Shown: positions 34,525 through 55,242 of the stretch, one piece after another | How positions within the stretch are numbered: position 1 is the first letter of the stretch | How the letters are laid out: each line of letters opens with the position of its first letter | Program-made: the position numbers and the translations under genes | Assembly: GCA_028683355.1 (NCBI GenBank) | Contig: JAQUIZ010000001.1 | Coordinates: 15,618 to 79,617 of the forward strand | Direction of reading: 5' to 3' | Source: Fermentimonas sp. | GTDB taxonomy: Bacteria; Bacteroidota; Bacteroidia; Bacteroidales; Dysgonomonadaceae | DNA length: 64,000 nucleotides | Notes under the pieces: generated by a model | What the model saw: only the letters and a program-made list of their open reading frames with translations | What the model was told of the DNA's origin: nothing | Database searches by the model: none

Positions 34525-36462
34525 ATGAAAGAGAAATCACAGTTTGAGAAAAACGCTGCGGACAAGCAGGTCGAATTGCTTTCCGAAGCATTGAACGGTG
34601 CAGTCAGTGTCGGTGGCCATTGGCTCAACGCCACGGGCAAGGGATATCCGAAGTTTTATCCGAAAGGAGTTGCGGTCAGTCCGTTCAACGCCCTGTTCAT
34701 GGCATTGCATTCGGACAAGACCGGAAGCAAGACCAACCTCTTCACCTTATACAGCGAAGCCAAGGCACGGGGAGAGTCTGTCCGGGAACACGAGAAAGGT
34801 GTGCCCTTCCTGTTCTACAACTGGAACAAGTATGTAAACCGGAACAATCCCAACGACATCATTTCAAGAAACGACTACCAACAACTGCCTCCTGAAGAGA
34901 GGAACCGGTATAAGGGCATACACAACAGAGAGATTCGCACACTGTTCACCATAGACCAGACCCTGCTGCCCCTTGTTGACAAGAATGTATATGAGACCCT
35001 TGTGCAGAAACACGGCAACAGCGTGGAGCAGGGATTCGGCGAAAAGGAGCTGCGTGAATTGCGCCCCCGCTTCAATGCCTTTGTGCAAGCCATTTCCAAA
35101 AACATGGTGCCCGTCCGCACGGACGGAAGCGGCGTGGCACATTACGACAGTCAAAAGGATGCGGTTTACATTCCCCGTCAAAAGAATTTTGAACATTATA
35201 CCGACTATGCACAAGAGACCTTGCGGCAGATCATAGCGGCTACCGGACACCAGCAACGCCTTGCCCGTGAAGGCATGGTGATGAAAAACGGAGTGCCACC
35301 CACCGAGGATGCCGTCAAGCAGGAACATCTTATCTACGAAATCGCTTCGGGTATCAAGATGCTGGTAATGGGACTGCCTGCACGCCTGTCGGATGAGAAT
35401 ATCGAGATGGTGGACTACTGGAGCCGGGAACTCAAAGAGAATCCCTGTCTAATTGATGCCATAGAGAGCGATGTGAACAATGCCTTGAAGGTCATACGCA
35501 AGGCGGAACGAGGCGAGAAAATCGAATATGCCACCTATCGTAACCACCGGCAGACCGAGCAGATGCAGGAGCAGATGCCCAAGCATTTCTTCGTGGCTGA
35601 CGAGATCAAGAAACACCCCGACAAGGATAACAAGACCATCGTGTTGGTCATAGACCGACAGGGAAAGAGTGCCGATGTCATCTTGCCTGCCGGCGCATCC
35701 TTGGAGGTGAACAACGAGATAAAGGGCATGAACAAACAGCGCATACAGTCTGCCCTGCAGAAAAGCGGCATTGAGCATGTCCGCTTCTACAATCCAGACG
35801 GAGCATTGGGGTATCGTCCCGACGACCGCTATTTTGCCGAGAAGCAGATTGAGGTGGCAAGATTGAAGAGCTGGACTTTGGAAACGCTCTCCACCATCGA
35901 CGCCCATCCTGCGGTAAAGCAAGCCTATGATCTTGGCTTTGAGCAAATCCAGATGGTGCAGGACGACAAAAACCGTTGGGCATTGTATCTAAAACCCGAA
36001 GGCAAGTCCGGTTACAGCATCTATCCCGACAAGGATGACCTGAACCGTTTCTTCACCACCCTCAAGCAGTCGTTGGATAACATCGACAAGGTACGTGGCG
36101 AACTGGCGAAGAAATACTATGCCTTGGCGGAGAGCAAACCCGAAATGAAGGTGGATCTGTTCCACACATCGGACGAGCGCATCGACCTGAACCGCATCCA
36201 GCGTGTGGCCGTGTTCAAGACCAAGAACGGTGCGATACTCTGCGCTCCCACCATAGACAATCAGAAGCCACAGCCCCGAAGTGTCACGCCACAACAATGG
36301 CAACGGATGTGGCTTGCCGAAGACCGGAACAGCTTCAAGCAGCATTTGGCTGCAACACTCTTTGCGGATCTGCTGAACAAGAGCCAATCACAGGAGCAGA
36401 CCTCTTCCGAGAAACAGGAAGAAGAGGTGGAGGCAAAAGTCGGCCGGAAAGAGGAAATCTAA
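34525..36462 (+). CDS. ArdC-N-like (DUF1738-type) ssDNA-binding domain protein lacking the zincin HExxH
   Basis: The N-terminal KGYPKFYPKGVAVSPFNALFMALHSDKTGSKTNLFTLYSEAKARGESV fits the ArdC N-domain pattern. The expected HExxH position reads ETLRQIIAATGHQQRLAREG. Confidence 0.65.
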   Translation: MKEKSQFEKNAADKQVELLSEALNGAVSVGGHWLNATGKGYPKFYPKGVAVSPFNALFMALHSDKTGSKTNLFTLYSEAKARGESVREHEKGVPFLFYNWNKYVNRNNPNDIISRNDYQQLPPEERNRYKGIHNREIRTLFTIDQTLLPLVDKNVYETLVQKHGNSVEQGFGEKELRELRPRFNAFVQAISKNMVPVRTDGSGVAHYDSQKDAVYIPRQKNFEHYTDYAQETLRQIIAATGHQQRLAREGMVMKNGVPPTEDAVKQEHLIYEIASGIKMLVMGLPARLSDENIEMVDYWSRELKENPCLIDAIESDVNNALKVIRKAERGEKIEYATYRNHRQTEQMQEQMPKHFFVADEIKKHPDKDNKTIVLVIDRQGKSADVILPAGASLEVNNEIKGMNKQRIQSALQKSGIEHVRFYNPDGALGYRPDDRYFAEKQIEVARLKSWTLETLSTIDAHPAVKQAYDLGFEQIQMVQDDKNRWALYLKPEGKSGYSIYPDKDDLNRFFTTLKQSLDNIDKVRGELAKKYYALAESKPEMKVDLFHTSDERIDLNRIQRVAVFKTKNGAILCAPTIDNQKPQPRSVTPQQWQRMWLAEDRNSFKQHLAATLFADLLNKSQSQEQTSSEKQEEEVEAKVGRKEEI

Positions 36463-38935: not shown

Positions 38936-40648
38936 ATGGCCGGTTACAAGAAATATAACAACGATGGCCCTTCCGCAGAAGACAAGGCTCTTGACCTTTT
39001 TGCGGAAATGATGATCGAGCGCATCGAGACCATCAGCAAGGACTGGTCGAAGCCGTGGATTACCGTGGGAAGTTTGGGGTGGCCGAAGAACCTGTCAGGG
39101 CGTGAGTACAATGGGATGAACGCGCTGATGTTGCTTCTCCACTGCGAGAAGAACGGATATAAGATTCCTCGTTTCTGCACCTTTGACTGTGTGCAGCGGT
39201 TGAACAAGCCGACTGAAAAACAGGCTAAAGAGGGTGTGGAACTGCCGAGGGTTGCCGTCAACCGTGGTGAAAAATCGTTCCCGGTCATGCTTACCACATT
39301 TACCTGCATCCATAAGGAGACCAAGGAGAAAATCAAGTATGACGATTACAAAAGGCTCTCCGACGAAGAGAAGAAGATGTACAACGTATATCCGAAGATG
39401 CAGGTCTTTCGGGTCTTTAACGTGTCCCAGACCAATCTTCAGGAAGCCCGTCCGGAACTTTGGAACAAGCTGGCGAATGGGGATGCCGTAAAATTGGACG
39501 AGAGCGAGAAGATGTCTTTTGAACCGATGGATGTGATGATCCGTGATAACCGGTGGATTTGTCCCATCAAGCCGATGCACCAGGACAAAGCCTACTTCTC
39601 CATTACCAAAAACGAGATTGTGGTTCCTGAAAAGGCACAGTTCAAGGACGGGGAATCGTACTACGGCACGCTTTGGCATGAAATGACCCACAGCACAGGT
39701 ATCGAGGGGCAGCTTGACCGCATCAAGCCCACCGCTTTCGGTTCGGACGAATATGCCCGTGAGGAATTAGTGGCTGAATTAGGCAGCGCATTGGTGGCAC
39801 AGCGTTATGGTATGAGCAAGGCTCTGAAAGAAGAGAGCTGCGCCTATCTAAAATCGTGGCTGGAGCAACTGAAAGAGTCTCCGCAATTTATCAAGACCAC
39901 GCTCTTGGATGTGAAAAAGGCGACTTCGTTGGTTACGCAAAACGTGGATAAGATTGCGGAAGAATTGGAAAAGGGGAAAAAGGAAGAGCAGAACAACAAG
40001 CAAGAAGTGAAAGTTGAACAACCTGCATCCGGCGAAAAGATTTTCTATTCTTCCGTTGCCTATCTGCAATCAACCGATGACACTTCCCGGCTGGACGAAT
40101 TTCGGGACAAGGGTGATTATGAAGGATTGCTCCAAGCTGCCAAAGAGTATTATGACGGGAACGGTATCAATGAGCAATATACCTTTGCCTCTCCTCTCCA
40201 GAACAAGGGTGATGACCTGTTGATTGAAGACAAGGATTTTGCCGTGGTCTATAACAACAGCGTGGGTGGCACATACGAGGTGATGCTGAAATATTCGGAA
40301 CAGGAAATCCGTGACCATATTACCAGATACGGAACCCGTCTGCCAAGCGATGACATCAAAGAGGTAGCAAAGGATATGGTGGCAGAACAGTTCCATGCTA
40401 TAACGAAACAGCGAATACCTGTCTTTGAAATGCCGAGCGGAGACATTCTCTATGCCGGATATAACAGGGAGACCGACACGCTTGATATCGGTACGGTGGT
40501 CAATGCCGGTCTTGTTCCCAACCATCAGTTCCCCTACGACCACGACAATTCTCTCGAATCCAACCTGCAATCCGTCCATTCGGAATTAAGTCAGATGGAA
40601 CAGTATCAGGAGGAAGAGGTGGAATATAGCGGTGGTATGCACCGATGA
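38936..40648 (+). CDS. ardC: ArdC-like antirestriction protein (ssDNA-binding N-domain plus zincin metalloprotease domain)
   Basis: KPWITVGSLGWPKNLSGREYNGMNALMLLL is the ArdC N-domain. An intact HExxH occurs in YYGTLWHEMTHSTG. There is a long C-terminal extension. Confidence 0.8.
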   Translation: MAGYKKYNNDGPSAEDKALDLFAEMMIERIETISKDWSKPWITVGSLGWPKNLSGREYNGMNALMLLLHCEKNGYKIPRFCTFDCVQRLNKPTEKQAKEGVELPRVAVNRGEKSFPVMLTTFTCIHKETKEKIKYDDYKRLSDEEKKMYNVYPKMQVFRVFNVSQTNLQEARPELWNKLANGDAVKLDESEKMSFEPMDVMIRDNRWICPIKPMHQDKAYFSITKNEIVVPEKAQFKDGESYYGTLWHEMTHSTGIEGQLDRIKPTAFGSDEYAREELVAELGSALVAQRYGMSKALKEESCAYLKSWLEQLKESPQFIKTTLLDVKKATSLVTQNVDKIAEELEKGKKEEQNNKQEVKVEQPASGEKIFYSSVAYLQSTDDTSRLDEFRDKGDYEGLLQAAKEYYDGNGINEQYTFASPLQNKGDDLLIEDKDFAVVYNNSVGGTYEVMLKYSEQEIRDHITRYGTRLPSDDIKEVAKDMVAEQFHAITKQRIPVFEMPSGDILYAGYNRETDTLDIGTVVNAGLVPNHQFPYDHDNSLESNLQSVHSELSQMEQYQEEEVEYSGGMHR

Positions 40649-40672: not shown

Positions 40673-40714
40673 CAATCCAACCGTAGGGAGTTTGTTCTCC
40701 TTGCGGTTGGATTG
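40673..40714. terminator. strong inverted repeat between convergent genes (bidirectional terminator candidate)
   Basis: CAATCCAACCG (40673-40683) pairs perfectly with CGGTTGGATTG (40704-40714). An inner GGAG/CTCC pairing adds to the stem. Confidence 0.6.
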
Positions 40715-40728: not shown

Positions 40729-41355
40729 TCAGTCAATATCATAGCCTATCACATAATCGTCATTGATAAGCAGATAGTAGTAGCCGTTGCCACAATTCCG
40801 ATATTCCTTGCTGAAGCCTGCCGCCATATCGCCATTGTCTCGTGGCTCACACCAAAGCGTTCCGTCATAACCGCAAAAATCAAAGCGGCAAGTGGAAAAT
40901 TTCTCTTTGTTTTTCAGTGCCTCACGGAAGAGACGCATTGCTGTCGTTCCACAGTATTTTTCAATGGTGGCAAGTCCGATACATTTGCCGTCGATGCGTG
41001 TGCCTGTTGTAATGTGGTTCTCGTAAAGGTTTTTATCCAAATCCGCATTGGCGATTTCACGAAGCCAGGAATTTGTATGTGTGGCAAGTCGAGCAAGTTT
41101 CTGATATTTCAGAATAAGTTTCCTGTCCGTATTCTCGTCCTGTTCTTGCGAGGGATAGTATATTTGCTCGATGCTTGCCCAATCTGTAAACACATAGCCT
41201 TTTGTCCGCTTGCCGAGAGCGATAATGCCAATAACACCTCTGTCTCGGTTGATGAACAAGCGTCTGCGTTTTCCTGCAATCCGCACGTATAAAGACGGAG
41301 GATTGGTTTCGTTGCGAAGATAGCTCTCCGCCGGATGAATAGTTGTCATTTCCAT
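40729..41355 (-). CDS. hypothetical protein (208 aa)
   Basis: Last gene of a tightly packed minus-strand operon. No motif recognised. Confidence 0.5.
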   Translation of the reverse strand: MEMTTIHPAESYLRNETNPPSLYVRIAGKRRRLFINRDRGVIGIIALGKRTKGYVFTDWASIEQIYYPSQEQDENTDRKLILKYQKLARLATHTNSWLREIANADLDKNLYENHITTGTRIDGKCIGLATIEKYCGTTAMRLFREALKNKEKFSTCRFDFCGYDGTLWCEPRDNGDMAAGFSKEYRNCGNGYYYLLINDDYVIGYDID

Positions 41356-41363
41356 ATCTGTAT

Positions 41364-41603
41364 CTATTTTTCAATGTTTATTTTACCTATCCTTACCAAT
41401 GTACCATTGCGGTAAAGCATGATTTCTCCGGGCTTGAACCCCATTTCTCCGAAGGCTATGTATTTGATATAATCCCGGTACTTCTCGCCTGAAAAGTTTT
41501 TACCGCACAAGTTGTTGAAAAACATGGGTATTGAAAACCCATCCTCTCCTGACAACACTGTTTTGCCGTTTTGCCTGATTTCGTCTAACATACCAATTTC
41601 CAA
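41364..41603 (-). CDS. hypothetical small protein (79 aa)
   Basis: Co-oriented with its neighbours; overlaps the upstream ORF by 19 nt. Confidence 0.45.
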   Translation of the reverse strand: MEIGMLDEIRQNGKTVLSGEDGFSIPMFFNNLCGKNFSGEKYRDYIKYIAFGEMGFKPGEIMLYRNGTLVRIGKINIEK

Positions 41604-41836
41604 TTTTCATCATCAATCGTAAGTTTGTTCATTTCCCAATCATACTCCACTTCCGGTGCATTGGTATAGGGAAAATTGATGGTGTAGCCGATTTGTCCGT
41701 AGGAACAATGAAGCGGTGTTACACATATTTCCCTGCCAAAATAAAGGCTCGGTGTGCAGTATTTCCGCCAATTAAAGCGGTCTGCAAGGATATTCCTGCA
41801 AAGTCTTCTGTAATATGATTTGTCCGATAAAGTCAT
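41585..41836 (-). CDS. hypothetical small protein (83 aa)
   Basis: Co-oriented and tightly packed. Confidence 0.45.
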   Translation of the reverse strand: MTLSDKSYYRRLCRNILADRFNWRKYCTPSLYFGREICVTPLHCSYGQIGYTINFPYTNAPEVEYDWEMNKLTIDDENWKLVC

Positions 41837-41847
41837 AATTATGTGTA

Positions 41848-42210
41848 TTAAAGAAATTCCATTTCAAATGCTTGTAGCAATTCATATATTTGTTCTTCGG
41901 CATCTTCCATATCCGCTACAATATCCTTGATGTGATAAGGTGCGCCATTCTTGCCGTGTCCGTCATCGCCTATCCACAAATAGGCTTCATAATCGGGGTC
42001 AAAACCCTCGTAATACTCTTTTACACTGGCTATGAGGGAATCAATATCCTCGCCCTGCATATCGGCATTGAAGAGAAAATCCTGTCCGTACTTGGTATAG
42101 CGTTGAAACTCAAACAATACTCTTGTCTCGTTTTTGTCTTCAACGTTCACGCTCCAGCCTTTTTCTTGGGCAATGTCGGTTATTCTCTGTATCTGTTCTT
42201 CGGTAGTCAT
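41848..42210 (-). CDS. strongly acidic 120-aa protein (candidate DNA mimic or anti-defence)
   Basis: By my count about 29 Asp+Glu against about 9 Lys+Arg. It lies in the ArdC/PcfJK neighbourhood. Confidence 0.55.
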   Translation of the reverse strand: MTTEEQIQRITDIAQEKGWSVNVEDKNETRVLFEFQRYTKYGQDFLFNADMQGEDIDSLIASVKEYYEGFDPDYEAYLWIGDDGHGKNGAPYHIKDIVADMEDAEEQIYELLQAFEMEFL

Positions 42211-42261
42211 CTTGTGAGGGTTTTGAAGTGGGGAAACTTTTTACATTTCCCCACACGTGGC

Positions 42262-42594
42262 TTAATCCGTTACTTGAAAATAATACTCCTGCTTCTCGTC
42301 CGACCATTCGGAGGTCATTTCGTCCGCTTCTCTCCATAGCTTGTCATAGAGAATGGCTCTTTGGTTGTCTCTCTCGTGCCACTGCCATATCTTGTGATTG
42401 AGTACAAGGCAGAGTTCCGTCCAATACTTGTAGTTGTCTTTCCATTCGGACTTGGCTCGGCTGTATGTGTCGGCTATGGCTTTGTCTCCGAATTTATCGG
42501 CAATGGAGAAGTCCTGCCAAAAGGTGGTTATCGGCTCGTAACCGTTCAACTCTGTTATGTTCCATCTTGGGATGGCGATTTGAAGTGCTTTCAT
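42262..42594 (-). CDS. hypothetical Trp-rich small protein (110 aa)
   Basis: Co-oriented ORF. No motif recognised. Confidence 0.5.
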   Translation of the reverse strand: MKALQIAIPRWNITELNGYEPITTFWQDFSIADKFGDKAIADTYSRAKSEWKDNYKYWTELCLVLNHKIWQWHERDNQRAILYDKLWREADEMTSEWSDEKQEYYFQVTD

Positions 42595-42599
42595 AATCG

Positions 42600-42911
42600 T
42601 TATTGTTTATGGTTTTCGTAATACTCTTCGGGCAAATAATAGAGGTCGTTCTCTGACAAATGGTCTATGGCTTCCGCTGCCAGACGGCACGCCCATTCGT
42701 TACGCTGGTCATATCTTCCCTTGTGCCAGTTCTCCGCCAACTGCTCCATAAAGTAGAACATCAGCTTGGCTTTTTCGTTTACCAAATAGCGGTGGTCATC
42801 CGCCAATGCCTTGCCCACCTTTCGGGGTGAAGCCATTTTTCCGTTTACATAGTTTGAGAACTCGTCCGCAAAGCGTTTGTCGTTCTCCGATAATTGATTG
42901 TTGTACTCCAT
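42600..42911 (-). CDS. hypothetical small protein (103 aa)
   Basis: The ATG at 42911 (MEYNNQLSEND...) is preferred. The ORF-track extension to 43304 runs through the conserved non-coding element. Confidence 0.5.
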   Translation of the reverse strand: MEYNNQLSENDKRFADEFSNYVNGKMASPRKVGKALADDHRYLVNEKAKLMFYFMEQLAENWHKGRYDQRNEWACRLAAEAIDHLSENDLYYLPEEYYENHKQ

Positions 42912-43313
42912 TTCTAATGAATTTTGATGTTGAACATTTTTTCTTTTCCCTCTGGTCGGTTCTTTCCCGTCTGAACCGCCTTGGAATTTTATGGATGCGG
43001 TAAACGGCTGTCGGCACAGCTTCATGCGACGGCTTTCCCGGCCAATTACTCTTTCACGGAAAGGAAGAATTTGCAGGGAATGCACTTCAAGCCGGAGAAT
43101 CAAGCACGACAGCAGACCTTTGCATCTGATAAAACCAAGAGCGGTGTGGACGGAAGATGAGCCACGGCAGTTATACCTATAAAAGGAAGATGGCTTGGGC
43201 AAAATATAAAGGTTGAGATACAAAAGGAAGCTGCCAACGCAGTTTAGGCAACTCATAAAAACGGGTATCGTGCTTTTGTGAAACCACGTAAGCACGACAC
43301 TCATTGATAAGAG
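42912..43313 (-). repeat. copy C (divergent) of a conserved ~300-400-nt non-coding leader element
   Basis: It shares the exact 16-mer TTTTTTCTTTTCCCTC (42937-42952) and GTTGAAC with copy B. It shares ACAGCAG(T)ACCTTTGCA and CGGAGAATC blocks with copies A and B. Confidence 0.5.
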
Positions 43314-43760
43314 CTAAAAAGATGAAGGCAGTAAATCACTCATCCTCTGTTCCGGCAAACCGCAAAAGCCCCGAATGATAGTATCTCCGTTTACGCCATC
43401 AAGTTTGCTGAACATCTGCAAGGAGTCAAATCCTCTGTCGAATTGCTCCTTGCTGACAGCAGGGGCAAAATGAATAACTCCACGTGGATAGCTTTTTGAT
43501 ACACCTATCCACCCACGCAAATAATCATCGAAATGTCCGTCCGCTTTCGACACATAGAACTCTTGCGAATGAGAACTGCAAATGTTCTTTCCGTACATCT
43601 CGTCTCCTAAAATCAGGATTCCGATTTTAGGATTGTACATAAAACGTCTGTTGGCTATTTGAAGAATATCTATGATTTTCTGTTTGATATTGATAACCAT
43701 CAGGGGTTTCCCAATCTCTCTTTTTGCACGTTTGCCTGTGCCGTAACCTTTCTTTTCCAT
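43314..43760 (-). CDS. hypothetical protein (148 aa)
   Basis: Second gene of the middle minus-strand operon. No motif recognised. Confidence 0.5.
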   Translation of the reverse strand: MEKKGYGTGKRAKREIGKPLMVINIKQKIIDILQIANRRFMYNPKIGILILGDEMYGKNICSSHSQEFYVSKADGHFDDYLRGWIGVSKSYPRGVIHFAPAVSKEQFDRGFDSLQMFSKLDGVNGDTIIRGFCGLPEQRMSDLLPSSF

Positions 43761-43784
43761 ACTCCAGTCTTTTATGCTCTCCGA

Positions 43785-44366
43785 TTATGCCGATATTTGA
43801 TATTCGTGAATAGAGCAGTATGCGTCTTCATTTTTTTCTTTCCATTGCATGACAATCGCATTGACATCCTGACGGGATTTAACTTGTACTTCGCAAATAT
43901 CCTCCAGCCAGTCATATACGCTTTCCAAGTCTTGAAAATACTCGGAATAGTATTCTTCCTCCGAAGTGCATACATCAACATAGTATCTGTCGGGAAAGTA
44001 TTTGCCCTTATCATCATTCGTCCAATACTCACACATACCAGGTTCTTCCGACTGATAGAAATATCGCAGCGTGGGATATTTCTCACATACCATATCAAAC
44101 ATTTCATTGCAGGGAGACCACGCTGTTTCTGTATTGAACGTAAGCACCTCACCGTTGAATTTGAGGTTATCCCACGTTCCACGGCAATATATCTTTTCCC
44201 AACTTTCTCCGAGGGCTTCTACAAGACACCCTAACCACGTAGTTCCAAAACCATTTTGAACGGACGGCTTTTGTCGTTTTTCTAAATCTTTCATTAACTC
44301 ATAGAGTTTTTTCAATTCTGTTGCGTTGCCCTCTATCGCATACGCAGTGCTGCACCAATTCGGCAT
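43785..44366 (-). CDS. acidic Cys/Trp-rich protein, possibly DUF1281/YubB-like
   Basis: The N-terminus MPNWCSTAYAIEGNATELKKL resembles the M-x-N-W-C start of a family I recall from plasmid leading regions. The assignment is tentative. Confidence 0.5.
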   Translation of the reverse strand: MPNWCSTAYAIEGNATELKKLYELMKDLEKRQKPSVQNGFGTTWLGCLVEALGESWEKIYCRGTWDNLKFNGEVLTFNTETAWSPCNEMFDMVCEKYPTLRYFYQSEEPGMCEYWTNDDKGKYFPDRYYVDVCTSEEEYYSEYFQDLESVYDWLEDICEVQVKSRQDVNAIVMQWKEKNEDAYCSIHEYQISA

Positions 44367-44700
44367 AATCGTAAATTTTTATTGTTAGACTTGTTTTTGT
44401 TTCCCTCTGCTTGGAAGCCTTCCGACTTCGCCACCAGGATATGTTTTATGTGCGTTAAAGACTGCGTTACAAGGGAGATAAGACAAGTAAACAAACAAGG
44501 AGTTAATGAAATACCCAATTTCTGCCTGCCGGAAATTGAGGAAAGTTGTCGTTAAGTCCGGTGATTTGTTAGCCGAAGCGATACTTGGTGTTCTCCCACA
44601 GCAGTACCTTTGCACCATAAAACAATCCGCGCGGCGTGGTGGTCGGCTCAAAGGAGAATACTCAAAAAACTATAATGGGTTGTTAGTAGGTAAAACAGAT
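44367..44700 (-). repeat. copy A of the conserved non-coding leader element
   Basis: The core at 44477-44559 matches 47431-47513 at 73 of 83 positions by hand alignment. It contains the hairpin CAATTTC (44516-44522) / GAAATTG (44532-44538). Confidence 0.65.
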
Positions 44701-44850
44701 TTGACCTTTGAGTGGTGCTATAAACGGCACAAGTGGTTGTATAAATGGAAGAATTGCGTACATTGCTATATTTTAACAGGTTACATCTACCACTTTGCGG
44801 TAGAATTAAAACAGTACATCGCTACGGCAATCAGCGAGCAGCCGTAGCCG

Positions 44851-44896
44851 GATACATAAAAGCCACCTGCTACATTGTATATCGTAACAAGTGGCT
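44851..44896 (-). terminator. candidate terminator after the pcfJ-like operon
   Basis: 44861-44869 pairs with 44888-44896. This gives 9 bp on the minus-strand RNA including one G-U; the same position is a C-A mismatch on the plus strand. The stem is followed by UUUAUGU. A second hairpin is GCTACGGC/GCCGTAGC at 44821-44848. Confidence 0.4.
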
Positions 44897-44916
44897 GACG
44901 AAAAGAACAAAACAGA

Positions 44917-46182
44917 TTATGCTGTCATACGCTTACGGATTTGCCGTGCGTTTTTCTGTACAAGTTGTATGATGCGGTCGTGGTATTCTGTGTTTTGGTT
45001 GCAAAGCCCTCTTGATTGCAGGACTTTGAAATTTTCAAGCGACAGTTCAACAGTCTCAATGCGTTTGTCATTTATCCGTGCAGAGAAAACCAAAGACTTG
45101 GGTTTGAGGTAGTATTCGCATTGTCCCACACAATGATGTAAAGCATTTCCCTCTTTGTAATAATCATCCACACTCTCCAACACGCTGACTACAATCAGTC
45201 CGTCAGTGAATGACAATCCAAAGAATTTGCCTTTCAACTCTCTGAACTTCTCCTCATTCTCCTGCGCCTTTTTCTGCTCGGCTTCACGTTTCTCTCGCTC
45301 TTGGATAACCCTTACCCTCTCTTGATAGCGGTCGTGCTCGGCTTTCAAATCCAATGGGCAGACATAATGGGCATTGCGAATATCCTTGCCACACCTTTCA
45401 AGCAAGCGGATGTAATCCACCCAAAGGGAAATGTCGGATATGTGATAATTGTTACGCATCACTATCTTATAAGTGTTCCAATACAAATCAAAATACATAG
45501 GGTGTTGCAGAAAATAGTTCAAATCCACCTTTCTCCCTGCCTTGAACATCGTTTCGGCTCTACTGTCCTGCAACAAGGCTTCAATCAGCTTCGTTGGCTC
45601 AATCTCCGACAAAGAACCTCTTAGTCCGTTGCGTCTTAACTTGGTTGTGGCAGAATAATAAGGATAAACCTTGCAATCGGCAATCCGCCTGTAAACATTA
45701 TTGTCGTTCCGCAGTTCTATATGATTGTCAAAGACAAAGCTGTCTATATAGTAGCCGAGTGTACGCCTTAATGCCGTTACTTCTGTCTTGCCATTATCAT
45801 CAATCCAATAACGGACTACCTCCATAGAGTAAAAATCGGCTTTCTTGCCCTTGCGATAATGAGCCGTCAAAAGGAACACCCTCTGCACCTGTAAGCCGTC
45901 TTGGGTTGTCAGTATGGAGTAATAGGATTTGTCTTTATACTTACGCTGTAAGGTGTTGCGTATCTCCAACTTTGTATCGCAGCGAGGGCAACGGCAGGTC
46001 TTTTCTCTGGTCTCGCTCCATTGGTGTCCGCAATCCATACAGGTGGTCATACCGCTTTTGGCACGGAACGCATAATGATTTAAGCAATGGCGAAATGCCC
46101 ATAACTCTTGCTTCTCGGTCAGTGGCAGTAACCGCTCATTGGCGGTTACTACCTTGTGCTGTAATCTCGTCTTGGCTCTCAT
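44917..46182 (-). CDS. pcfJ: PcfJ-like protein
   Basis: 421 aa with N-terminal Cys pairs (CMDCGHQW ... CRCPRCD) and C-terminal GNALHHCVGQCEYY typical of PcfJ-like proteins. The PcfK-like gene lies immediately upstream. Confidence 0.75.
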   Translation of the reverse strand: MRAKTRLQHKVVTANERLLPLTEKQELWAFRHCLNHYAFRAKSGMTTCMDCGHQWSETREKTCRCPRCDTKLEIRNTLQRKYKDKSYYSILTTQDGLQVQRVFLLTAHYRKGKKADFYSMEVVRYWIDDNGKTEVTALRRTLGYYIDSFVFDNHIELRNDNNVYRRIADCKVYPYYSATTKLRRNGLRGSLSEIEPTKLIEALLQDSRAETMFKAGRKVDLNYFLQHPMYFDLYWNTYKIVMRNNYHISDISLWVDYIRLLERCGKDIRNAHYVCPLDLKAEHDRYQERVRVIQEREKREAEQKKAQENEEKFRELKGKFFGLSFTDGLIVVSVLESVDDYYKEGNALHHCVGQCEYYLKPKSLVFSARINDKRIETVELSLENFKVLQSRGLCNQNTEYHDRIIQLVQKNARQIRKRMTA

Positions 46183-46619
46183 AGTCCTAAATCAAATAGT
46201 GATGGTTGGGTAACTTCCTGTTTCGTTGCTTTCTGGGTTGGCTTGGGTCTGCTGTTACGTTGTTGTATCTTCCGCAGTTCCTCGTCTTGATAGGCTTTGA
46301 GTGCCTTTTCCCTCGCTTCGGCTTGCTCTTCGGGAGTAAGTTCTACCCTATGATTGACTATCACACCGCAATTGACGGCTTTACCCACCTCTATATTGTC
46401 TTCATCATAATAGTGGGTACAGAGAGAATAAACCTCATTGTCGGTCATTCCACAACCGCCCTCTTTGCATATAGCCATTGCTTGGTTGAGTACAAATGTG
46501 ATGCAATCGTCCAAATTCTTGTTCTCTTTGGCATACGACACGGCAAAGAGTTCATCCGTCTTGGCTCTATCGTCCAAATATGCCTTTATGGTCTGCTTGA
46601 ATTGTTCTGTTCCTTTCAT
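46179..46619 (-). CDS. pcfK: PcfK-like protein
   Basis: The N-terminus MKGTEQFKQTIKAYLDDRAKTDELFAVSYAKENKNLDDCITFVLNQ matches my memory of Bacteroides PcfK-like proteins. It has a 4-nt overlap with the pcfJ-like gene. Confidence 0.7.
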   Translation of the reverse strand: MKGTEQFKQTIKAYLDDRAKTDELFAVSYAKENKNLDDCITFVLNQAMAICKEGGCGMTDNEVYSLCTHYYDEDNIEVGKAVNCGVIVNHRVELTPEEQAEAREKALKAYQDEELRKIQQRNSRPKPTQKATKQEVTQPSLFDLGL

Positions 46620-46627
46620 ATCGTCTG

Positions 46628-46840
46628 TTATTTTGCTTGATAATAAATACTTGGCTCACTTGAAACATTGTAGATGTATGCTCCGCACCTTACCAACAAT
46701 GCCTGTTTACCATAATACAATCGCTTCATTTCTTTGACACTGCCTGTGTTATGGAAGTTGGGAAATCGGCTGATATTACAGCGTTCTCCCTGCTCTTTGG
46801 TCATTCTTCGTGTTCTCATAGCATTAGAAATGATAGTCAA
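46628..46840 (-). CDS. hypothetical small basic protein
   Basis: 70-aa ORF that overlaps the upstream gene by 17 nt. Coding status uncertain. Confidence 0.35.
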   Translation of the reverse strand: MTIISNAMRTRRMTKEQGERCNISRFPNFHNTGSVKEMKRLYYGKQALLVRCGAYIYNVSSEPSIYYQAK

Positions 46841-47309
46841 TCACTCCACTGATATACAGCAATGTTCCAGGCACTAATTGGCTTACCACTCGCAGAAACT
46901 CGTAAGATTCTTCGGCAGCTCCGTTGATACACTGCTCGTCCATATAAAATTGATAGCCGGTGTCAAGCGGATTTTTGAGGTACTTTTCAAGTTGGTACAC
47001 CTCGCCAATCCAAAGAGTGCAGTTCTCTGTGGTAACGGCTTTCGCCTTTTCTTGCAAGGTTGCCACAAATTCCTCTTTCCATTTGTCCGCACCGCCATTG
47101 TAACGGATTGTATCATCTGAAACAAGCTCAAACATACCTTTGGGCAGAATGTTATTTATCAGATTGTCGATGTGGAATTTACGCTCTTCCTCGTCAATCT
47201 CCGAACAATAGTCATAATAGTGTCCGTCTCCTTGTTCAAGGGTGCAGTCGTTCAGAATGTTGTCTTTTAGAGGTCTCTCTTCTGTGATTTGAAAAATCTT
47301 GCTGTGCAT
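46824..47309 (-). CDS. acidic hypothetical protein (161 aa), first gene after leader copy B
   Basis: Rich in Asp/Glu. First ORF of the pcfK/pcfJ operon. Confidence 0.5.
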   Translation of the reverse strand: MHSKIFQITEERPLKDNILNDCTLEQGDGHYYDYCSEIDEEERKFHIDNLINNILPKGMFELVSDDTIRYNGGADKWKEEFVATLQEKAKAVTTENCTLWIGEVYQLEKYLKNPLDTGYQFYMDEQCINGAAEESYEFLRVVSQLVPGTLLYISGVIDYHF

Positions 47310-47665
47310 AATCTGTCTGTTTTAATCGTTGAACTTTTATTTTTTCTTTTCCCTCATTTTTGAAGCCTTTATCGGCTTTCTTGTCGGGATCTGAATTTTA
47401 CGTGCATTCAGAGACTGTGGACTACAGAGGGATAAGACAAGTAAATGCCAGAGGAGTTGATGAAATACCCAATTTCAGCCTGCCGGAAATTGCGGAAAGT
47501 TGTCGTCAAGTCCACAAGGCATTAGTGGAGCCAATCGGAGAATCGGTACTTGGCGTTCCCTCGCCGCAGTACCTTTGCAAAGGAAAATGGAGCCGACAAG
47601 AATAGCCGGAGAAGCTCACAGTATTGTGATAATAGAAACAGGTATAATGGTCTGGTAGTAGGAAT
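47310..47665 (-). repeat. copy B of the conserved non-coding leader element
   Basis: Contains the 16-mer TTTTTTCTTTTCCCTC (47340-47355) and the core 47431-47513. It has the hairpin CAATTTC (47470-47476) / GAAATTG (47486-47492) and a second hairpin at 47545-47573. Confidence 0.65.
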
Positions 47666-47682
47666 TATAAAACAGGATAAAA

Positions 47683-47808
47683 TATAACAAAACGGCAAAC
47701 TCGATGTATATTTGCCAAAATCGTTATAACATTCGCAGCGTTATCTTACTAACAGTATAACAAAAATGGCAAACCACATTGTTATATGCCAAATTTGTTA
47801 TAACTTTG
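47683..47808 (+). promoter_or_regulatory. two tandem imperfect palindromes plus a -7 box upstream of abiEi (candidate autoregulatory operator and promoter)
   Basis: Unit 1 (47683-47730) is TATAAC-n5-GGCAAA ... TTTGCC-n6-GTTATAAC. Unit 2 (47756-47804) is TATAAC-n6-GGCAAA ... TGCC-n6-GTTATAAC. TAACTTTG (47801-47808) fits TAnnTTTG, 22 nt before the ATG. Confidence 0.55.
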
Positions 47809-47830: not shown

Positions 47831-48559
47831 ATGACTGCTGTAAATCAAATAATAGATATTGCTAAGAAACAGGATGGCATATTCACAAGAAAAGACTTGT
47901 TGAATGTGGTACGATTTGGTATGAAAAACATATCAGAAGGGTCTCTTGCTGTGCTTTTGAATAGGATGATTGCAGAAAACAAAATCATTAGGGTTTCATA
48001 CGGGAAATATAAATTAAATGAAGATTTGAAGCATGAATTTTTGTATGAACCAAACGAATTTATGCTTTCACTCAACAAGCATATAAAAGAAAAATTTCCT
48101 TTCATCGACTATTGTATATGGCAACCGTCTGTATTTGCATCAATGATGCTACATGTACCTGCGGTAAGAACCACATTAGTAGATGTTGAAAGGGAAGCGA
48201 TGGAATCTGTTTTTATGTCATTACAAAACGTCGAATCAGAAATCCCTATTTTCTTGAATCCGTCCCAAGAAGATGTGGACAGATACATTACAAATAGAGA
48301 CTTAATTATTGTCCGCCCTCTTGTTAAAGAGGCTCCATTAGATGTTATAAATGGTTGTCCCGTTCCCACATTGGAGAAAATGCTTGTTGATGCCATATCT
48401 GACAAAGAACTACAACATCTTCAAGGCAATGAATTATATACTATATATTCAAACGCATTCTCTGACTATGCAATCAAAAAAACAAGGTTATTGAGATATG
48501 CGGCACGTCGCAACCGAAAACAAAAAGTTGAACAAATTATCAATACAATCAATATATGA
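47831..48559 (+). CDS. abiEi: AbiEi-like antitoxin / transcriptional regulator
   Basis: 242 aa with a winged-helix-like N-terminus. It has a 4-nt overlap with the downstream AbiEii-like nucleotidyltransferase gene. Confidence 0.7.
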   Translation: MTAVNQIIDIAKKQDGIFTRKDLLNVVRFGMKNISEGSLAVLLNRMIAENKIIRVSYGKYKLNEDLKHEFLYEPNEFMLSLNKHIKEKFPFIDYCIWQPSVFASMMLHVPAVRTTLVDVEREAMESVFMSLQNVESEIPIFLNPSQEDVDRYITNRDLIIVRPLVKEAPLDVINGCPVPTLEKMLVDAISDKELQHLQGNELYTIYSNAFSDYAIKKTRLLRYAARRNRKQKVEQIINTINI

Positions 48560-49620
48560 TACATCCCGATAGCAGGACTTTGTCTTGGATAGAACAAGTC
48601 GCCAAAGACAATAAGATAAAAGATATAACCCTCGTTGAGAAAACAATCCGTGCATTCTCATTGTTGGAAGCATTGGCTCGATCGGGTTGCCCATTTTTGT
48701 TCAAGGGAGGTTCGTCCTTAATGCTTCATCTTGATACAGGCAAACGACTTTCTATCGATATTGATATAATATGTCCTCCTGGAACAAGAATTGAAGATTA
48801 TCTTGAAAAGTATTCCGAAGAATATGGCTTTGGAGAGGTCAAATTGGTAGAGCGTATCTCTCGTACCGATATTCCGAAACAACACGCCAAATTCTTTTAC
48901 CAAGTGGCATATCCGGCAGGAGGACGTCAGGATAAGATTTTGTTGGATGTATTATTCGAGGAAATTCATTATGCAAATGTAGTGGAACTTCCTATTCAAA
49001 GCCGGTTGTTAAAAACAGAGGGAGACCCCATAATTGTAAAGTTACCAAGTAAAGAGGATTTGCTTGGCGATAAATTAACTGCATTTGCTCCTCACACGAC
49101 CGGGATTCCTTTTTTCAAAGGAGAAAAGAATTGCTCAATGGAAATATGCAAACAACTATTTGACATTGCATCTCTTTTCGATATTGTCAATGACTTGTCC
49201 ATTACAACAGAGACATTCAATAAGTTTGCGATGGTTGAACTTCAATACAGAGGTGAGAGTCCTGATGCAATTCAAAAAGTTTTGGATGATATTTATGATA
49301 CGGCTAAATGTATCGTAATGCGTGGACAAGATAATCAAGAAGAGTTTGACATGATTCAAGATGGAATAAAAAAAGTGCGTGGCTTTATTCATAGTGAAGT
49401 CTATACTTTGGAAAGTGCTATCACAAATGCTTCAAAAGCCGCCTATCTCGCTAAACTTATCGGCAAAGGAATACACGAGGTAAAACATTATAATCCGTCC
49501 GAAGCGAATTTATTAATCAACACAACGATACAACCTCCATTATCAACTAAGTTGAACAAATTTAAGAAGACAAATGCAGAAGCGTTCTTCTATTGGAGTG
49601 AAATACAAAAGTTAGGATAA
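48556..49620 (+). CDS. abiEii: AbiEii/AbiGii-family nucleotidyltransferase toxin
   Basis: FLFKGGSSLMLHL and GKRLSIDIDIICP match the GG-[ST]-x-L and R-x-S-x-D-x-D motifs of AbiEii-type NTases. Confidence 0.8.
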   Translation: MIHPDSRTLSWIEQVAKDNKIKDITLVEKTIRAFSLLEALARSGCPFLFKGGSSLMLHLDTGKRLSIDIDIICPPGTRIEDYLEKYSEEYGFGEVKLVERISRTDIPKQHAKFFYQVAYPAGGRQDKILLDVLFEEIHYANVVELPIQSRLLKTEGDPIIVKLPSKEDLLGDKLTAFAPHTTGIPFFKGEKNCSMEICKQLFDIASLFDIVNDLSITTETFNKFAMVELQYRGESPDAIQKVLDDIYDTAKCIVMRGQDNQEEFDMIQDGIKKVRGFIHSEVYTLESAITNASKAAYLAKLIGKGIHEVKHYNPSEANLLINTTIQPPLSTKLNKFKKTNAEAFFYWSEIQKLG

Positions 49621-49704: not shown

Positions 49705-51201
49705 CTATTTCATATAAAGCAATACTTTGGTATGTCGATTGGCTTCGGTAGGATTGTAATCTGAGATTCCTCCCTTGCCGACCTTGGTAATCACATCAAC
49801 TGCCAGTCCTCGCTTAACCAATTCTGTGGTAATATAATCGGCTCTCGATATGCTTAACCTGTCGTTTACATCGGCAGTCCCTGTGGCTGCATCAGCCGCA
49901 CCTACAACAGTAACCGACAATCCGTATTTCTTTGCGACACGTGCCAGTTCATCAAGATTGACCGACTGTGACTTGTCTGTCAACTTCGCTGTGCCGAGTT
50001 CAAAGAAGAAATAAACGGGAGAACCGATGCACTCGTTGCCGGAGTTTATAAAGGACAGATAATCCGAGTGGTTATAAGTGGCAATGCTGTCTCCGCCCAT
50101 ATTTGTCAATTCCTGAGCTTTGGCAAGATTGTCCGATTGGACTTCATTTGAATTTCCACTATCATCTACATTCACATTGGCAATTCCGGAACAAACCGCA
50201 AGGCTGTCATTGGACAAAGGCGACTTGCCATCCCAACGCCTGTTCTTCAACCTTGCCCTGAGCGAGTTCAGTCCGCTGTAATCATTTTTAGGATAACCAC
50301 TGCTTAAATTTTCACGGTCTTCAAACAGCCGGCTGTACTTTTCAAGCAATCCTTCAATCTCCAAAATTTTCTTCAGTTCATTCAAGGTACGCATATCCCT
50401 ATCGTGTTGACCAATGTACCTGCGGTTGCTTTCCGACAACTCCGAAGCATATTCCACTAACCACTCGTTTTGCCGAATATAAGGAGTCGCATCAGCGGAT
50501 CGTTTCCACCCGACCTTTCCAATCGTGAAAGACAGTCCGACGGAAATGGAGAGCATATTGTCCCCGAAGCGGTTGGCTTCCCCATATCCGTCAAAGTTTT
50601 GGAAAGTGGAAACATTGCCAATCTCCAGCAATGCCGCCAGCCGTTTGCAGATGCGGTATTGCCCTTGTATGCCATAAGAAATGGCAAATGGTTTCTGACC
50701 GTTCTGAGGATTATACATCATTCCAAGACCAACGTATGGAACAATGCCCCAACGTGGATTTTCTTTCTTTGCATACAGTCCGCCAAGGACATTATACATC
50801 AGGTCGGCGTGGAAATGATGATAGTCATTGACAGTAAGGTTGCAGTCCTTGAACCGCCAACCTCCATACCCGATTCTTGCCCCGATCTGTGGAGTGAACC
50901 ATTTGCCGACTGATGCGGATAACGATGGTTGTACCCTGTCAAACAAATCAGCACAGCCAATCGGTCTGCCGATGAAAGCACTTGCACCACCTTGCAGACT
51001 GACAAACCAGTTGCCGTTCCATGGTGAAGTTACCAGCACTCCCTTGTGGTAAGTCGGCTCTGCGGTTTGAAACATCAGTTCCTTCTCCATATAGGATTCA
51101 TAGTGTACACTATCCTGTGGGACAGGTTGTACATTCGCCTTCGCTTGCAGTGTGCAGCACATTCCTGCCATTGCCATTACAAATACTATTTTATTTCTCA
51201 T
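49705..51201 (-). CDS. OmpA-family outer-membrane protein
   Basis: Signal peptide MRNKIVFVMAMAGMCCTLQAKA and a beta-barrel-like N-terminal half. The C-terminal OmpA-like domain is LSVTVVGAADAATGTADVNDRLSISRADYITTELVKRG. Confidence 0.8.
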   Translation of the reverse strand: MRNKIVFVMAMAGMCCTLQAKANVQPVPQDSVHYESYMEKELMFQTAEPTYHKGVLVTSPWNGNWFVSLQGGASAFIGRPIGCADLFDRVQPSLSASVGKWFTPQIGARIGYGGWRFKDCNLTVNDYHHFHADLMYNVLGGLYAKKENPRWGIVPYVGLGMMYNPQNGQKPFAISYGIQGQYRICKRLAALLEIGNVSTFQNFDGYGEANRFGDNMLSISVGLSFTIGKVGWKRSADATPYIRQNEWLVEYASELSESNRRYIGQHDRDMRTLNELKKILEIEGLLEKYSRLFEDRENLSSGYPKNDYSGLNSLRARLKNRRWDGKSPLSNDSLAVCSGIANVNVDDSGNSNEVQSDNLAKAQELTNMGGDSIATYNHSDYLSFINSGNECIGSPVYFFFELGTAKLTDKSQSVNLDELARVAKKYGLSVTVVGAADAATGTADVNDRLSISRADYITTELVKRGLAVDVITKVGKGGISDYNPTEANRHTKVLLYMK

Positions 51202-51256
51202 ACGTTTTCTGTTATTATAGATTTCACATCCGATGCAGGAAACTACCTCCTGCCGA

Positions 51257-52708
51257 TTATCGTTTCTGTTTTTTGCCGGAAGCCGGACGCATCATCTTGC
51301 TTGCCATCATCATACACCGTCTTGCCCAGGCCCGGTTGTCCTCGTCATCGTCCCGTCCCCATTTAAGGTCACTGGAGCTTCCACCACCGCCATGCGTTTC
51401 GGCAAAAGTAGTGGCATCATTGACCATTCCGAGAAACAGAAGCGTGGCGCAGTGCATCACTTCCGATCCTTGTTCCGTCAGGCTTTGCAGTAATGAACCG
51501 TCAAATCGGGACTGTTCGGAAAGTCCCATTTCTCCCAATCGTACCGAGTGCTCCCTGACCAATGTTTCCAACATTACATCTTTGAGCAGCACATCCACGT
51601 TGGAATGGATTTCACGGCTGTACTTATAGGCTTCGCCTTTCAACTCCTCCGTGCGCTCGCCAATGGCATCCATGTCCCTTTTAAGGGCTTCAAGTTGTTG
51701 GTCAGCCGTCCGTAGCTTATCCTGCTTGTCTTCCAGTTTCGTTTGGATAGAAGCCAGTTCCTTTTCCAACCGATCCCTCTCTGCTATAATGGCAGCCGTA
51801 TCTCCCTGATGGGATTGAAGTGTGCGCTCCAATGCCGACAACTGGTATTCCTTTTCCGCTTTCGCCTTTCTGAGGTTGTCCACCATTGAGGTCAAACCTT
51901 TCACCCTGCGTTCTGCCAGACTGATTTCCACTTTTAGGTCGGACAGTGCTTTTTTGTGTTGGACAACCTGTTCTTCGATATTGGTACATTCTTCCGAAAG
52001 GTGTCGGCGGTACTCTTCGGTGGTGCGGTGTTTTGCGCCGGTCTCGGATATACTGCTACCACGTGACATTCCCCAACGCTTGTTCACTTCTGAGAAGTCG
52101 CTATGTAACTGCTTCATCCGTGCGCTGAACTCGTACTTGTCCTTTCCTGCAAAAATCTGCTTGTATGCAAACTTGCCGTCACGGATTGGCAACAAGGTAC
52201 AATGCGCATGGGGATTCAGTTCATCCATGTGTACGATAAAAGCTGCAATGTTCTCCTCTCCATATTTGCCACAAACGAATGAATAGACGTCCTTGGCCCA
52301 TTCTTCAATATCCTTGCACCTCTCGACATGGGAATTGTCCGCTCCCTTATCAAAATTTACAATCTGACTGCCGAAAGCTATTTCGTGCATACGTTCACGT
52401 GAACCTCCGAAAATAAAATTGACCACCGTGCGGAAACGTGGCTCTGCCAAACCTGCATTTGGGTCTTTGATTCCTCTCGCCAACAAATTATCGGACATTC
52501 TTTCCGGGATGCTCCGTGTCTTGTCTATCGGGCAGACCTTGCCTGCCCTTATCTCAAAATTCAAATGTTCTCTTGTCGGATCATAGTTCCCGACCGACAT
52601 GGCACGCTCCCAGCCTTTTTCCGTCCACCTGCGTTGGTGTTCGTTGCTTTGTGCTGTGGTTATGCCTTTTGATGGTCGGAAATCCATCACCTGCTTTGCA
52701 TTTGCCAT
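51257..52708 (-). CDS. MOBV-type (Mob/Pre family) relaxase
   Basis: The HxDExxPHxH signature VHMDELNPHAHCTLLP lies in the N-terminal domain. There is a long coiled-coil-like C-terminal half. Confidence 0.8.
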   Translation of the reverse strand: MANAKQVMDFRPSKGITTAQSNEHQRRWTEKGWERAMSVGNYDPTREHLNFEIRAGKVCPIDKTRSIPERMSDNLLARGIKDPNAGLAEPRFRTVVNFIFGGSRERMHEIAFGSQIVNFDKGADNSHVERCKDIEEWAKDVYSFVCGKYGEENIAAFIVHMDELNPHAHCTLLPIRDGKFAYKQIFAGKDKYEFSARMKQLHSDFSEVNKRWGMSRGSSISETGAKHRTTEEYRRHLSEECTNIEEQVVQHKKALSDLKVEISLAERRVKGLTSMVDNLRKAKAEKEYQLSALERTLQSHQGDTAAIIAERDRLEKELASIQTKLEDKQDKLRTADQQLEALKRDMDAIGERTEELKGEAYKYSREIHSNVDVLLKDVMLETLVREHSVRLGEMGLSEQSRFDGSLLQSLTEQGSEVMHCATLLFLGMVNDATTFAETHGGGGSSSDLKWGRDDDEDNRAWARRCMMMASKMMRPASGKKQKR

Positions 52709-52939
52709 ATTCTCTTTTCTGTTTTTCGGACATCCTGTTTGCCCCAGCTTGCTGCTTGTCCGGGCACCTCTCCCGATAGCTTTATGCTATTGGGGTATTA
52801 GGCTACCCATACTTCCCTCTGTTTGGTCAACGTGCAAGCACTGCTGCACGCTTAAAATGGCAAGCCTACAAGTGTAGGGCATCACGGTTCATCCGTGGTT
52901 ATACAATAAGTTTTTGACTTACAACACCGGTTGTGGAGT
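52709..52939. other. candidate oriT region upstream of the relaxase gene
   Basis: 231-nt non-coding gap with several short hairpins (CCTACA-ag-TGTAGG, CACGG-ttcat-CCGTG, GTGCA...TGCAC). Mob/Pre-type oriTs usually lie next to the relaxase gene. The nick site is not identified. Confidence 0.3.
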
Positions 52940-53791: not shown

Positions 53792-53874
53792 TTCATTTGA
53801 TTTTTGTTTGACTATATGTGGATTCGATTAACCTGCCACTATCCACTTATTCATGGCAGTTTCGCGTGATGATG

Positions 53875-54369: not shown

Positions 54370-54389
54370 AATCGTAATCCCTTGTGTAA

Positions 54390-55213: not shown

Positions 55214-55242
55214 AACTGTTGTATTTATTTGTTTCTGGTTCG

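Follow-up and report, generated by a model that had tools for sequence, protein, structure and literature searches.

Hairpin-forming leader elements in Bacteroidales integrative conjugative elements as candidate single-stranded DNA promoters

The sequence analyzed here (the window) is a stretch of 64,000 nt from Fermentimonas sp. (GenBank assembly GCA_028683355.1, contig JAQUIZ010000001.1, positions 15,618-79,617 of the forward strand) and is part of a Bacteroidales integrative conjugative element (ICE). Its subject is a block of 12 open reading frames (ORFs) at 40729-47309 and the structured repeats, named E1, E2 and E3, which lie directly upstream of three ORF runs in this block. An earlier note on the same DNA had described the block as strictly co-oriented and as encoding PcfJ- and PcfK-like proteins. 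Both statements were confirmed, as all 12 ORFs are on the minus strand and both proteins are present. The note had further proposed that the three repeats are single-strand promoters of an early-entry anti-defence region. The features of the block are as follows, in the direction in which its genes are read.

47643-47676, minus strand: upstream CCnTT(T)ATA boxes of HP1.
47372-47612, folding strand plus, which is the template strand of the downstream genes: HP1 (element E1), a long imperfect hairpin.
47550-47577, plus strand: promoter arm of HP1, TTG-N17-TACCTTTG, on the 3' arm, an exact match to the -33/-7 boxes of sigma-ABfr.
47310-47399, minus strand: conserved 5' untranslated region (UTR) of about 89 nt, with the predicted start at about 47397-47399 in a conserved GTAAAA.
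44917-47309, minus strand: operon 1 behind HP1, with b161 (46824-47309), a small ORF (46628-46840), PcfK (46179-46619) and PcfJ (44917-46182).
44861-44896, minus strand: intrinsic-terminator-like hairpin of 14 bp with a T run, right after pcfJ and before HP2.
44671-44748, minus strand: three upstream boxes of HP2, CCATTTATA, CCGTTTATA and CCCATTATA.
44420-44650, folding strand plus: HP2 (element E2), of the same hairpin family.
44585-44612, plus strand: promoter arm of HP2, TTG-N17-TACCTTTG.
44367-44447, minus strand: 5' UTR of the b193 operon, with the predicted start at about 44445-44447.
43314-44366, minus strand: operon 2 behind HP2, with b193 (43785-44366, weak DUF1281_C match) and b148 (43314-43760).
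42975-43135, plus strand: E3, a divergent or decayed hairpin.
40729-42911, minus strand: operon 3 behind E3, with b103 (true start ATG 42911), b110, b120, b83, DUF7688 (41364-41603) and b208.

When the repeats were compared, E1 and E2 shared about 85 % identity over cores of about 190 nt and are clear homologues; the core pattern is far beyond chance, with 0 matches expected in shuffled sequences. E3 has in common with them only the 5' box TGCAAAGGT, a CATAAAA resembling their predicted transcription start site and the 3' UTR, the last being that of HP2 in other ICEs. It was detected neither by the repeat search nor by the hidden Markov model of the family. E3 is masked by the ORF at 42600-43304 (minus strand, 234 aa), as the first 131 codons of this ORF are a spurious N-terminal stretch that results from translation across E3. 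The true start of the gene is ATG 42911 (103 aa), in keeping with other ICEs, where b103 lies directly behind an E2-type hairpin. The description of the repeats as long and structured is valid only if their extents and the folding strand are chosen correctly (z-scores on the plus strand of about -6 for E1 and E2 and of -2.65 for the divergent E3).

Relatives of the block were collected with a PcfJ alignment, which gave 80 loci from species-representative genomes (PcfJ identity 95 % down to 30 %; genera including Bacteroides, Prevotella, Alistipes, Parabacteroides and Porphyromonas). Iterated nhmmer searches found 53 copies of the element in these loci and 257 after 106 metagenome loci were added. 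Within the 128 loci with recognisable block genes, all 249 of 249 hairpins are co-oriented with the genes, and each is located just upstream of an ORF, namely b161, b193, b103, b120, b83 or PcfK. The commonest gene behind a hairpin is b161 (102 cases), and a locus carries up to five hairpins. The ancestral gene order is HTH (helix-turn-helix)-MobV-OmpA-[hairpin]-b161-PcfK-PcfJ-[hairpin]-b103...b208, converging on ArdC. Tandem or multiple units of hairpin, UTR and gene were also observed (L004 at 3792-4064 and 4571-4863; L010/L011 at 326, 2096, 4766 and 7500). As b193 changes its position together with its own hairpin, hairpin, UTR and gene behave together as one portable cassette. The same architecture recurs in sequence-divergent hairpins of ICEs from Porphyromonas, Parabacteroides and Prevotellaceae.

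Two other identities for the repeats were considered and rejected. A miniature inverted-repeat transposable element or other mobile palindrome does not agree with the lack of further copies in the window, nor with 249 copies in one orientation and one context. An integron attC-like site would come without an IntI gene and would leave the promoter motif described below unexplained.

A consensus structure was obtained by projecting per-sequence folds onto an alignment of 34 non-redundant copies; RNAalifold, applied to a gappy MAFFT alignment, had returned only a 3-bp CCC/GGG helix, and the helices were taken from the projected single folds instead. The consensus is one long hairpin, formed by pairing between the two halves of the element through at least five helices with indels, and the same hairpin was recovered from most individual sequences folded alone. 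Over 56 scored pairs, 83.8 % of the alignment cells were standard-paired, compared with 36-44 % when the partners were slid by 1-3 columns. Compensatory changes on both sides were found in 36 of the 56 pairs, for example in columns 26/312 (TA 19, AT 6, GC 3), 37/294 (AT 12, GC 6, CG 6) and 78/276 (GC 14, AT 11). The covariation score was 0.273 against 0.119 ± 0.007 in shuffled alignments, a value reached in 0 of 500 shuffles. In four copies (those of L006, L007, L009 and L028, at about 5225-5540), 60-70 nt of additional structured sequence are inserted exactly at the apex of an HP1-type hairpin, as expected for a hairpin tip, and L008 has a shorter version of this insertion.

The primary sigma factor consensus of Bacteroidota, sigma-ABfr, is TAnnTTTG at -7 with TTTG or TTG near -33 (PMC7366714). 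The antisense strand of the element (window plus) reads TTG-N17-TA[C/A]CTTTGCA in the 5' half, which is this consensus. Of 39 non-redundant copies, 37 carry an exact TTG-N16-20-TAnnTTTG on the antisense arm. The same motif was found on the sense strand between -250 and +260 in none of the 39, and TAnnTTTG at the mirrored sense position was likewise seen in 0/39 (as judged by consensus, not by activity). The sense arm has only a crippled copy of the promoter, in which the -7 box has lost 2 nt and gained 5 nt and the spacer is longer. The whole window contains only ten matches to the motif. Those of AbiEi (47779-47808, plus), of the relaxase-side operon (56362-56388, minus) and of a methylase (10232-10258, plus) face their own genes, whereas the two plus-strand matches in E1 and E2 face away from theirs.

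A canonical promoter that faces away from its operon and is flanked by inverted repeats could be an inverton, that is, a phase-variable promoter which is OFF in the window and would be flipped by, for example, the serine recombinase at 56536-57204. Invertible promoters are common in Bacteroidales (PMC8748976), and this resolvase-domain gene is located within the element. We rejected the inverton as extremely improbable, since the flipped junction (the promoter followed by an E1-type UTR) was found 0 times in the 80 genome loci and 0 times in the metagenome collection, while the unflipped form was present in 106 metagenome stretches. In addition, the motif is on the sense strand in 0/39 copies, and complementarity extends through at least five helices with indels over the whole element rather than being confined to terminal repeats.

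The motif could also be read as a plain antisense promoter of double-stranded DNA (dsDNA), producing antisense RNA against the upstream operon (mobV-ompA or pcfJ) for silencing or insulation, in which case the palindromy would serve something else. This would agree with the location of every hairpin just downstream of an operon and with the match of the motif in dsDNA to the consensus at normal spacing. We regard it as quite unlikely, because it leaves two observations unaccounted for: the covariation of the promoter spacer and flanks with a segment about 270 nt away, and the movement of the element, as a cassette, together with the downstream ORF and UTR. The sequence past the antisense start is also poorly conserved, except for the part that pairs in the stem.

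The placement of the motif within the fold was studied by structure prediction for 38 hairpins, six of which are divergent in sequence (Porphyromonas, Parabacteroides and Prevotellaceae). The -33 TTG is paired in 34-36 of the 38. Within the -7 box, T1 and n4-G8 are paired in 29-35 hairpins, A2 lacks a partner in 35 and n3 in 31, and about 5 nt of the template arm are bulged out within the box. In the alignment of 34 sequences, every motif base is the same in 33 or 34 of them, with variation only at the first n of the -7 box, and the pairing partners opposite T5-T7 are conserved in only 16-25 of 34. As the motif is invariant while its partners vary, the identity of the promoter arm is selected beyond the need for pairing. 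About 7 nt downstream of the -7 box there is a conserved (G/A)TAAAA, followed by a conserved leader of 80-90 nt to the start codon, which contains a small covarying GAAGCC-GAAA-GGCTTC hairpin and a AGGGAAAAGAAAAA tract.

The two strands of the elements were then compared as single-stranded DNA (ssDNA). For E1 the plus strand had a folding energy of -46.8 kcal/mol (z -6.28) and the minus strand -36.2 (z -3.2); for E2 the values were -45.3 (z -6.07) and -38.8 (z -4.65), and the plus strand of E3 reached -27 (z -2.65). Folds of short pieces of the sense strand as RNA gave z-scores of only -0.45 to -2.5, both the extents and the strand being wrong. Among 48 diverged representatives the template strand was the more stable one in 47 (mean -42.9 vs -36.1). 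In the pair table, A.C cells (G.T wobbles of the template strand) number 108 and G.T cells of the sense strand 40, and one C.A mismatch kept in 27/34 sequences is a G.T only on the template strand.

Upstream of 37 of the 39 copies (loci L001-L069), two to three boxes of the form C[CT]N1-2TT[AGT]TA per copy were found at about 70, 90 and 140 nt upstream of the hairpin 5' box. They are strand-specific, with 138 matches against 15 ± 4 in shuffled sequences and 7 on the other strand, and may be regulator sites or part of a promoter acting in double-strand mode. These boxes bear on the possibility that the hairpin acts as RNA. According to this alternative, the sense operons are transcribed from a non-canonical upstream double-strand promoter or by read-through, the hairpin lies in the 5' leader or intercistronic part of the mRNA and serves stability, processing or antitermination, and the antisense motif is a separate overlapping feature. 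Apart from the boxes, its support comes from the conserved 5' UTR with its own small hairpin, which forms the 3' part of the element, and from the fact that the long hairpin can form in RNA as well (the 83.8 % of paired cells counts G-U). We consider the RNA leader unlikely. No copy has a canonical sense promoter within 250 nt, and the poorer fold of the sense strand in 47/48 representatives and the conserved C.A mismatch both point to the other strand. Read-through is opposed by the terminator between pcfJ and HP2, and it cannot feed operon 1 in this window because AbiEi, the gene upstream of HP1, is divergent. A search of Rfam with the elements gave no match at the gathering score or even at E ≤ 1. 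Finally, an RNA leader leaves the invariant TTG-N17-TAnnTTTG and the systematically unpaired A unexplained.

We therefore favour the interpretation, with a probability of roughly 0.6, that E1, E2 and their family in the ICEs of Bacteroidales, which comprises at least 250 copies, are ssDNA promoters for the genes downstream of them. When single-stranded, about 240 nt of the window plus strand would fold into one long imperfect hairpin, of which the 3' arm, read from loop to base, would supply the canonical sigma-ABfr promoter TTG-N17-TA[C/A]CTTTG as non-template strand and the 5' arm would serve as template. The -33 box would be base-paired, while the A of the -7 box and the next base would face nothing. 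Because of these unpaired bases and the bulge of about 5 nt in the template arm, the -7 region would be pre-opened. RNA polymerase would initiate within the conserved (G/A)TAAAA, about 7 nt past the box, and would leave the base of the stem along the plus strand toward lower coordinates, into the minus-strand genes. The resulting mRNA would consist of the conserved 80-90-nt leader followed by b161-pcfK-pcfJ (from E1) or by b193 onward (from E2). Upon conversion to dsDNA only the crippled promoter copy would remain on the sense strand, and the genes would fall silent. The same RNA could also prime synthesis of the complementary strand, as Frpo of the F plasmid does. The proposal made in the note is partly supported: for E1 and E2 hairpin promoters active on ssDNA are supported in silico (about 240 nt with covariation, and -33/-7 on the 3' arm of the template strand, as in Frpo), and for E3 they are not.

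The sequences show the covarying hairpin, the identity, orientation and invariance of the promoter motif, the asymmetry between the strands and the strict association with downstream ORFs. We infer that RNA polymerase uses the hairpins, where it would start, that the plus strand would be the transferred one and that the genes would be expressed early in recipients. The last step, an early burst on the incoming strand, is proposed only tentatively and we lean somewhat against it. Two features in the window concern transfer.

51257-52708, minus strand: MobV-family relaxase (NCBIfam NF041497, 186 bits), the only relaxase in the window.
52740-52900: conserved non-coding block upstream of mobV, a candidate origin of transfer (oriT), with a GCTTGC palindrome and a AGCCTAATACCCC hairpin.

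The relaxase gene is co-oriented with the block and lies directly upstream of HP1 in related ICEs (MobV-OmpA-HP1). The non-coding block is conserved across relaxases of 64-100 % identity and consists of an invariant GCTTGC in a covarying palindrome (GTGC..GCAC / GGGC..GCCC), followed by a GGGTAGCCTAATACCCC hairpin and AGCAGCAAGCTGGG. It is a candidate for the oriT, the mobV leader or both. The earlier note had reasoned that the nick must lie below 40729. Nothing was found to support this. The only relaxase and the candidate oriT are at higher coordinates, and the nick need not lie below 40729 because the element is circular during transfer.

About where that reasoning would put the nick, at 40673-40714, nothing suggested an oriT. 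This position holds an 18-nt inverted repeat between the convergent ArdC and b208 genes, which is probably a bidirectional terminator.

Several points weigh against ssDNA promoters and against their use on the incoming strand. The evidence is computational throughout. In dsDNA the antisense motif is a perfectly good promoter with normal spacing, and the upstream boxes could serve a regulated double-strand promoter, which would place the hairpin in an RNA leader. E3 has a -7-like GACCTTTG at 43115-43122 in which GAnnTTTG replaces TAnnTTTG, and it is without the -33 TTG. The wobble asymmetry between the strands is modest when counted by columns (21 vs 14); as the sequences are also related, it was taken as supporting but not decisive. 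With regard to transfer, a nick site was sought in the window and none was located, and the alignment of the region upstream of mobV showed conserved palindromes but no polarity signal. The MOBV1 relaxases MobM and MobSag nick the coding strand upstream of mob and have ssoA downstream of mob (PMC5090054). They are the only relatives of MobV with mapped nicks that we found in the literature, which gave no other precedent for strand polarity and nothing for MobV of Bacteroidales. By analogy with MOBV1, the transferred strand would be the window minus (sense) strand, which lacks the promoter consensus, so that the block would be leading by position and yet untranscribable from the incoming strand. 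With transfer of the plus strand from an oriT close to mobV, the block would be the last part to enter and not the first. A further scenario is that these ICEs have another polarity, or that the plus strand acts while it is exposed in the donor; ssDNA accumulates in donors of F (PMC9849209). If the sense strand is transferred as in MOBV1, the hairpins would fire on the strand left in the donor, and such firing, if true, would be a transfer-coupled expression switch without known precedent. The favoured interpretation raises the question of which strand is transferred by MobV-type ICEs of Bacteroidales.

The proteins of the block were also analyzed. Firm family matches were limited to PcfJ, PcfK and DUF7688, in addition to the weak DUF1281_C match of b193. 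Searches of Pfam, NCBIfam, PHROGs and PDB sequences were otherwise empty and assigned no anti-defence, SOS-inhibition or ssb function. The product of b161 is an acidic protein of 161 aa restricted to these ICEs. When its AlphaFold2 model (predicted local distance difference test 84, predicted template modelling score 0.78) was compared with the PDB using Foldseek, no fold match was better than E = 1.7. Apart from its context, nothing supports the designation of the block as an anti-defence region; none of its proteins has a known function, and ArdC is encoded on the other strand. An ArdC gene (38936-40648) is indeed an immediate neighbour of the block, as had been stated, but it lies on the plus strand and converges on it. 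Likewise, the description of many small, very acidic proteins applies to 5 of the 12 (pI 4.06-5.15), while the rest are neutral or basic.

The remaining features of the window are listed below.

1-8236, plus strand: tra genes (TraM, TraN/DUF4138) and coupling protein.
8332-24210: first cargo defence island, with SIR2, a type III restriction-modification system with RhuM, AAA/HerA, REase-ARP, and an OLD-family ATPase with a UvrD-like helicase (Gabija-like).
25-40.6 kb, plus strand: DUF4099, Toprim, lysozyme/M23 and two ArdC-like genes.
34525-36462 and 38936-40648, plus strand: the two ArdC-like genes (ArdcN and zincin peptidase).
47831-49620, plus strand: AbiEi/AbiEii pair.
49705-56337, minus strand: operon with an OmpA-like gene and the MobV relaxase.
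56536-57204: small serine recombinase (resolvase-domain gene).
57690-61495: second cargo defence island, with two GmrSD-type genes.

The ArdC-like pair is on the strand opposite to the block behind the hairpins and, if the plus strand is transferred, would not be expressible from it. The AbiE pair between OmpA and HP1 is an insertion peculiar to the window element and a few others; other ICEs either lack the pair or carry it in inverted orientation between b208 and ArdC. The properly oriented promoter of AbiEi is overlapped by a 23-nt inverted repeat (47756-47802), which contains repeated TTGTTATA/TGGCAAA motifs and is likely the AbiEi operator.

To our knowledge, single-strand promoters have been demonstrated only for enterobacterial plasmids of the F and I types and inferred by similarity for their relatives. 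If the interpretation favoured here is true, expression from the incoming single strand would be a convergent, general solution of conjugative elements, and the idea would extend to the ICEs which dominate gene flow in the human gut. It makes exact predictions (the start sites, the bulged A and the strand that must be single-stranded). It would also give a handle on the genes which ICEs need first, namely PcfJ/PcfK and about ten further families as candidate anti-defence or establishment proteins, and a natural ssDNA-specific switch for the engineering of Bacteroides.

When compared with known systems, the elements resemble the single-strand origins (sso) ssoA/ssoU of rolling-circle plasmids and sso1 of ICEBs1 (PMC4595007) in that a folded ssDNA hairpin would be read by RNA polymerase in an orientation-specific manner. 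They also resemble ssoA of the MOBV1 modules in their position downstream of a MobV-type relaxase gene. This raises the possibility that the hairpins are single-strand origins only (sso/ssi), recruiting RNA polymerase for short primers and not for genes. ICEs can need an sso (PMC4595007), Frpo itself was found as a priming signal, and the location of HP1 just downstream of mobV-ompA is reminiscent of the oriT-mob-ssoA order of MOBV1 modules. We consider a role in priming alone improbable because one element can carry as many as five hairpins, all of them joined to a conserved UTR and the start of an ORF. In ssoA the promoter is on the 5' arm and the short primer ends at CS-6 in the terminal loop, whereas the promoter motif described here occupies the 3' arm and is directed out of the stem, towards ORFs. 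The RSB/CS-6 architecture (TAGCGT in the terminal loop) is absent; a TAGCG-like pentamer is present on the plus strand of many copies, outside the loop, and a conserved GCTAA/TTAGC is in an internal loop and not at the apex. The strand problem is common to the sso and the ssDNA-promoter interpretations, and a priming role is compatible with ssDNA promoters rather than exclusive of them.

With the invertons of Bacteroidales, the elements share a canonical promoter between inverted repeats that faces away from the operon; they differ in never having been found flipped (0 vs 106) and in the self-complementarity of the whole element.

The closest likeness of the proposed ssDNA promoters is to Frpo (Masai and Arai 1997; Couturier 2023, PMC9849209). 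In F, the -35/-10 boxes of Frpo1 and Frpo2 are restored by a stem-loop; these promoters work on ssDNA, and conversion to dsDNA silences them (PMC9849209). The ssi/Frpo-like elements are present in ColIb-P9 and other enterobacterial plasmids (Samuel 2024, PMC11541004). The survey of leading-region ssDNA promoters in the latter work contains 0 mentions of Bacteroidota, and no prior description in Bacteroidota was found in the literature. A blastn search (word size 11) of E1 against the 72,556 plasmids of PLSDB gave 4 hits, all from Bacteroidales and none enterobacterial. The architecture thus appears Frpo-like by every sequence-level criterion examined and without homology to Frpo, the latter as judged from the PLSDB and Rfam searches and not from a direct alignment with Frpo. 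Both are non-coding elements of about 240-330 nt that occur several times in a conjugative element, with co-oriented small genes downstream of every copy. The strand that is template for these genes forms a long imperfect stem-loop in which the boxes of the host primary sigma factor are restored, with mismatches at the melting box; transcription leaves, or here would leave, through the base of the stem, and the dsDNA form is without a sense promoter. The differences are the boxes themselves, which are the Bacteroidota -33 TTG and -7 TAnnTTTG here and -35/-10 in Frpo, and the host, which is here a Bacteroidales integrative element with a MobV relaxase. We give about even chances to the broader view that the ICEs of Bacteroidota have independently evolved a large and diverse class of ssDNA promoters, characterized by sigma-ABfr -33/-7 boxes, a pre-flipped A and portable cassettes, with up to five in one element.

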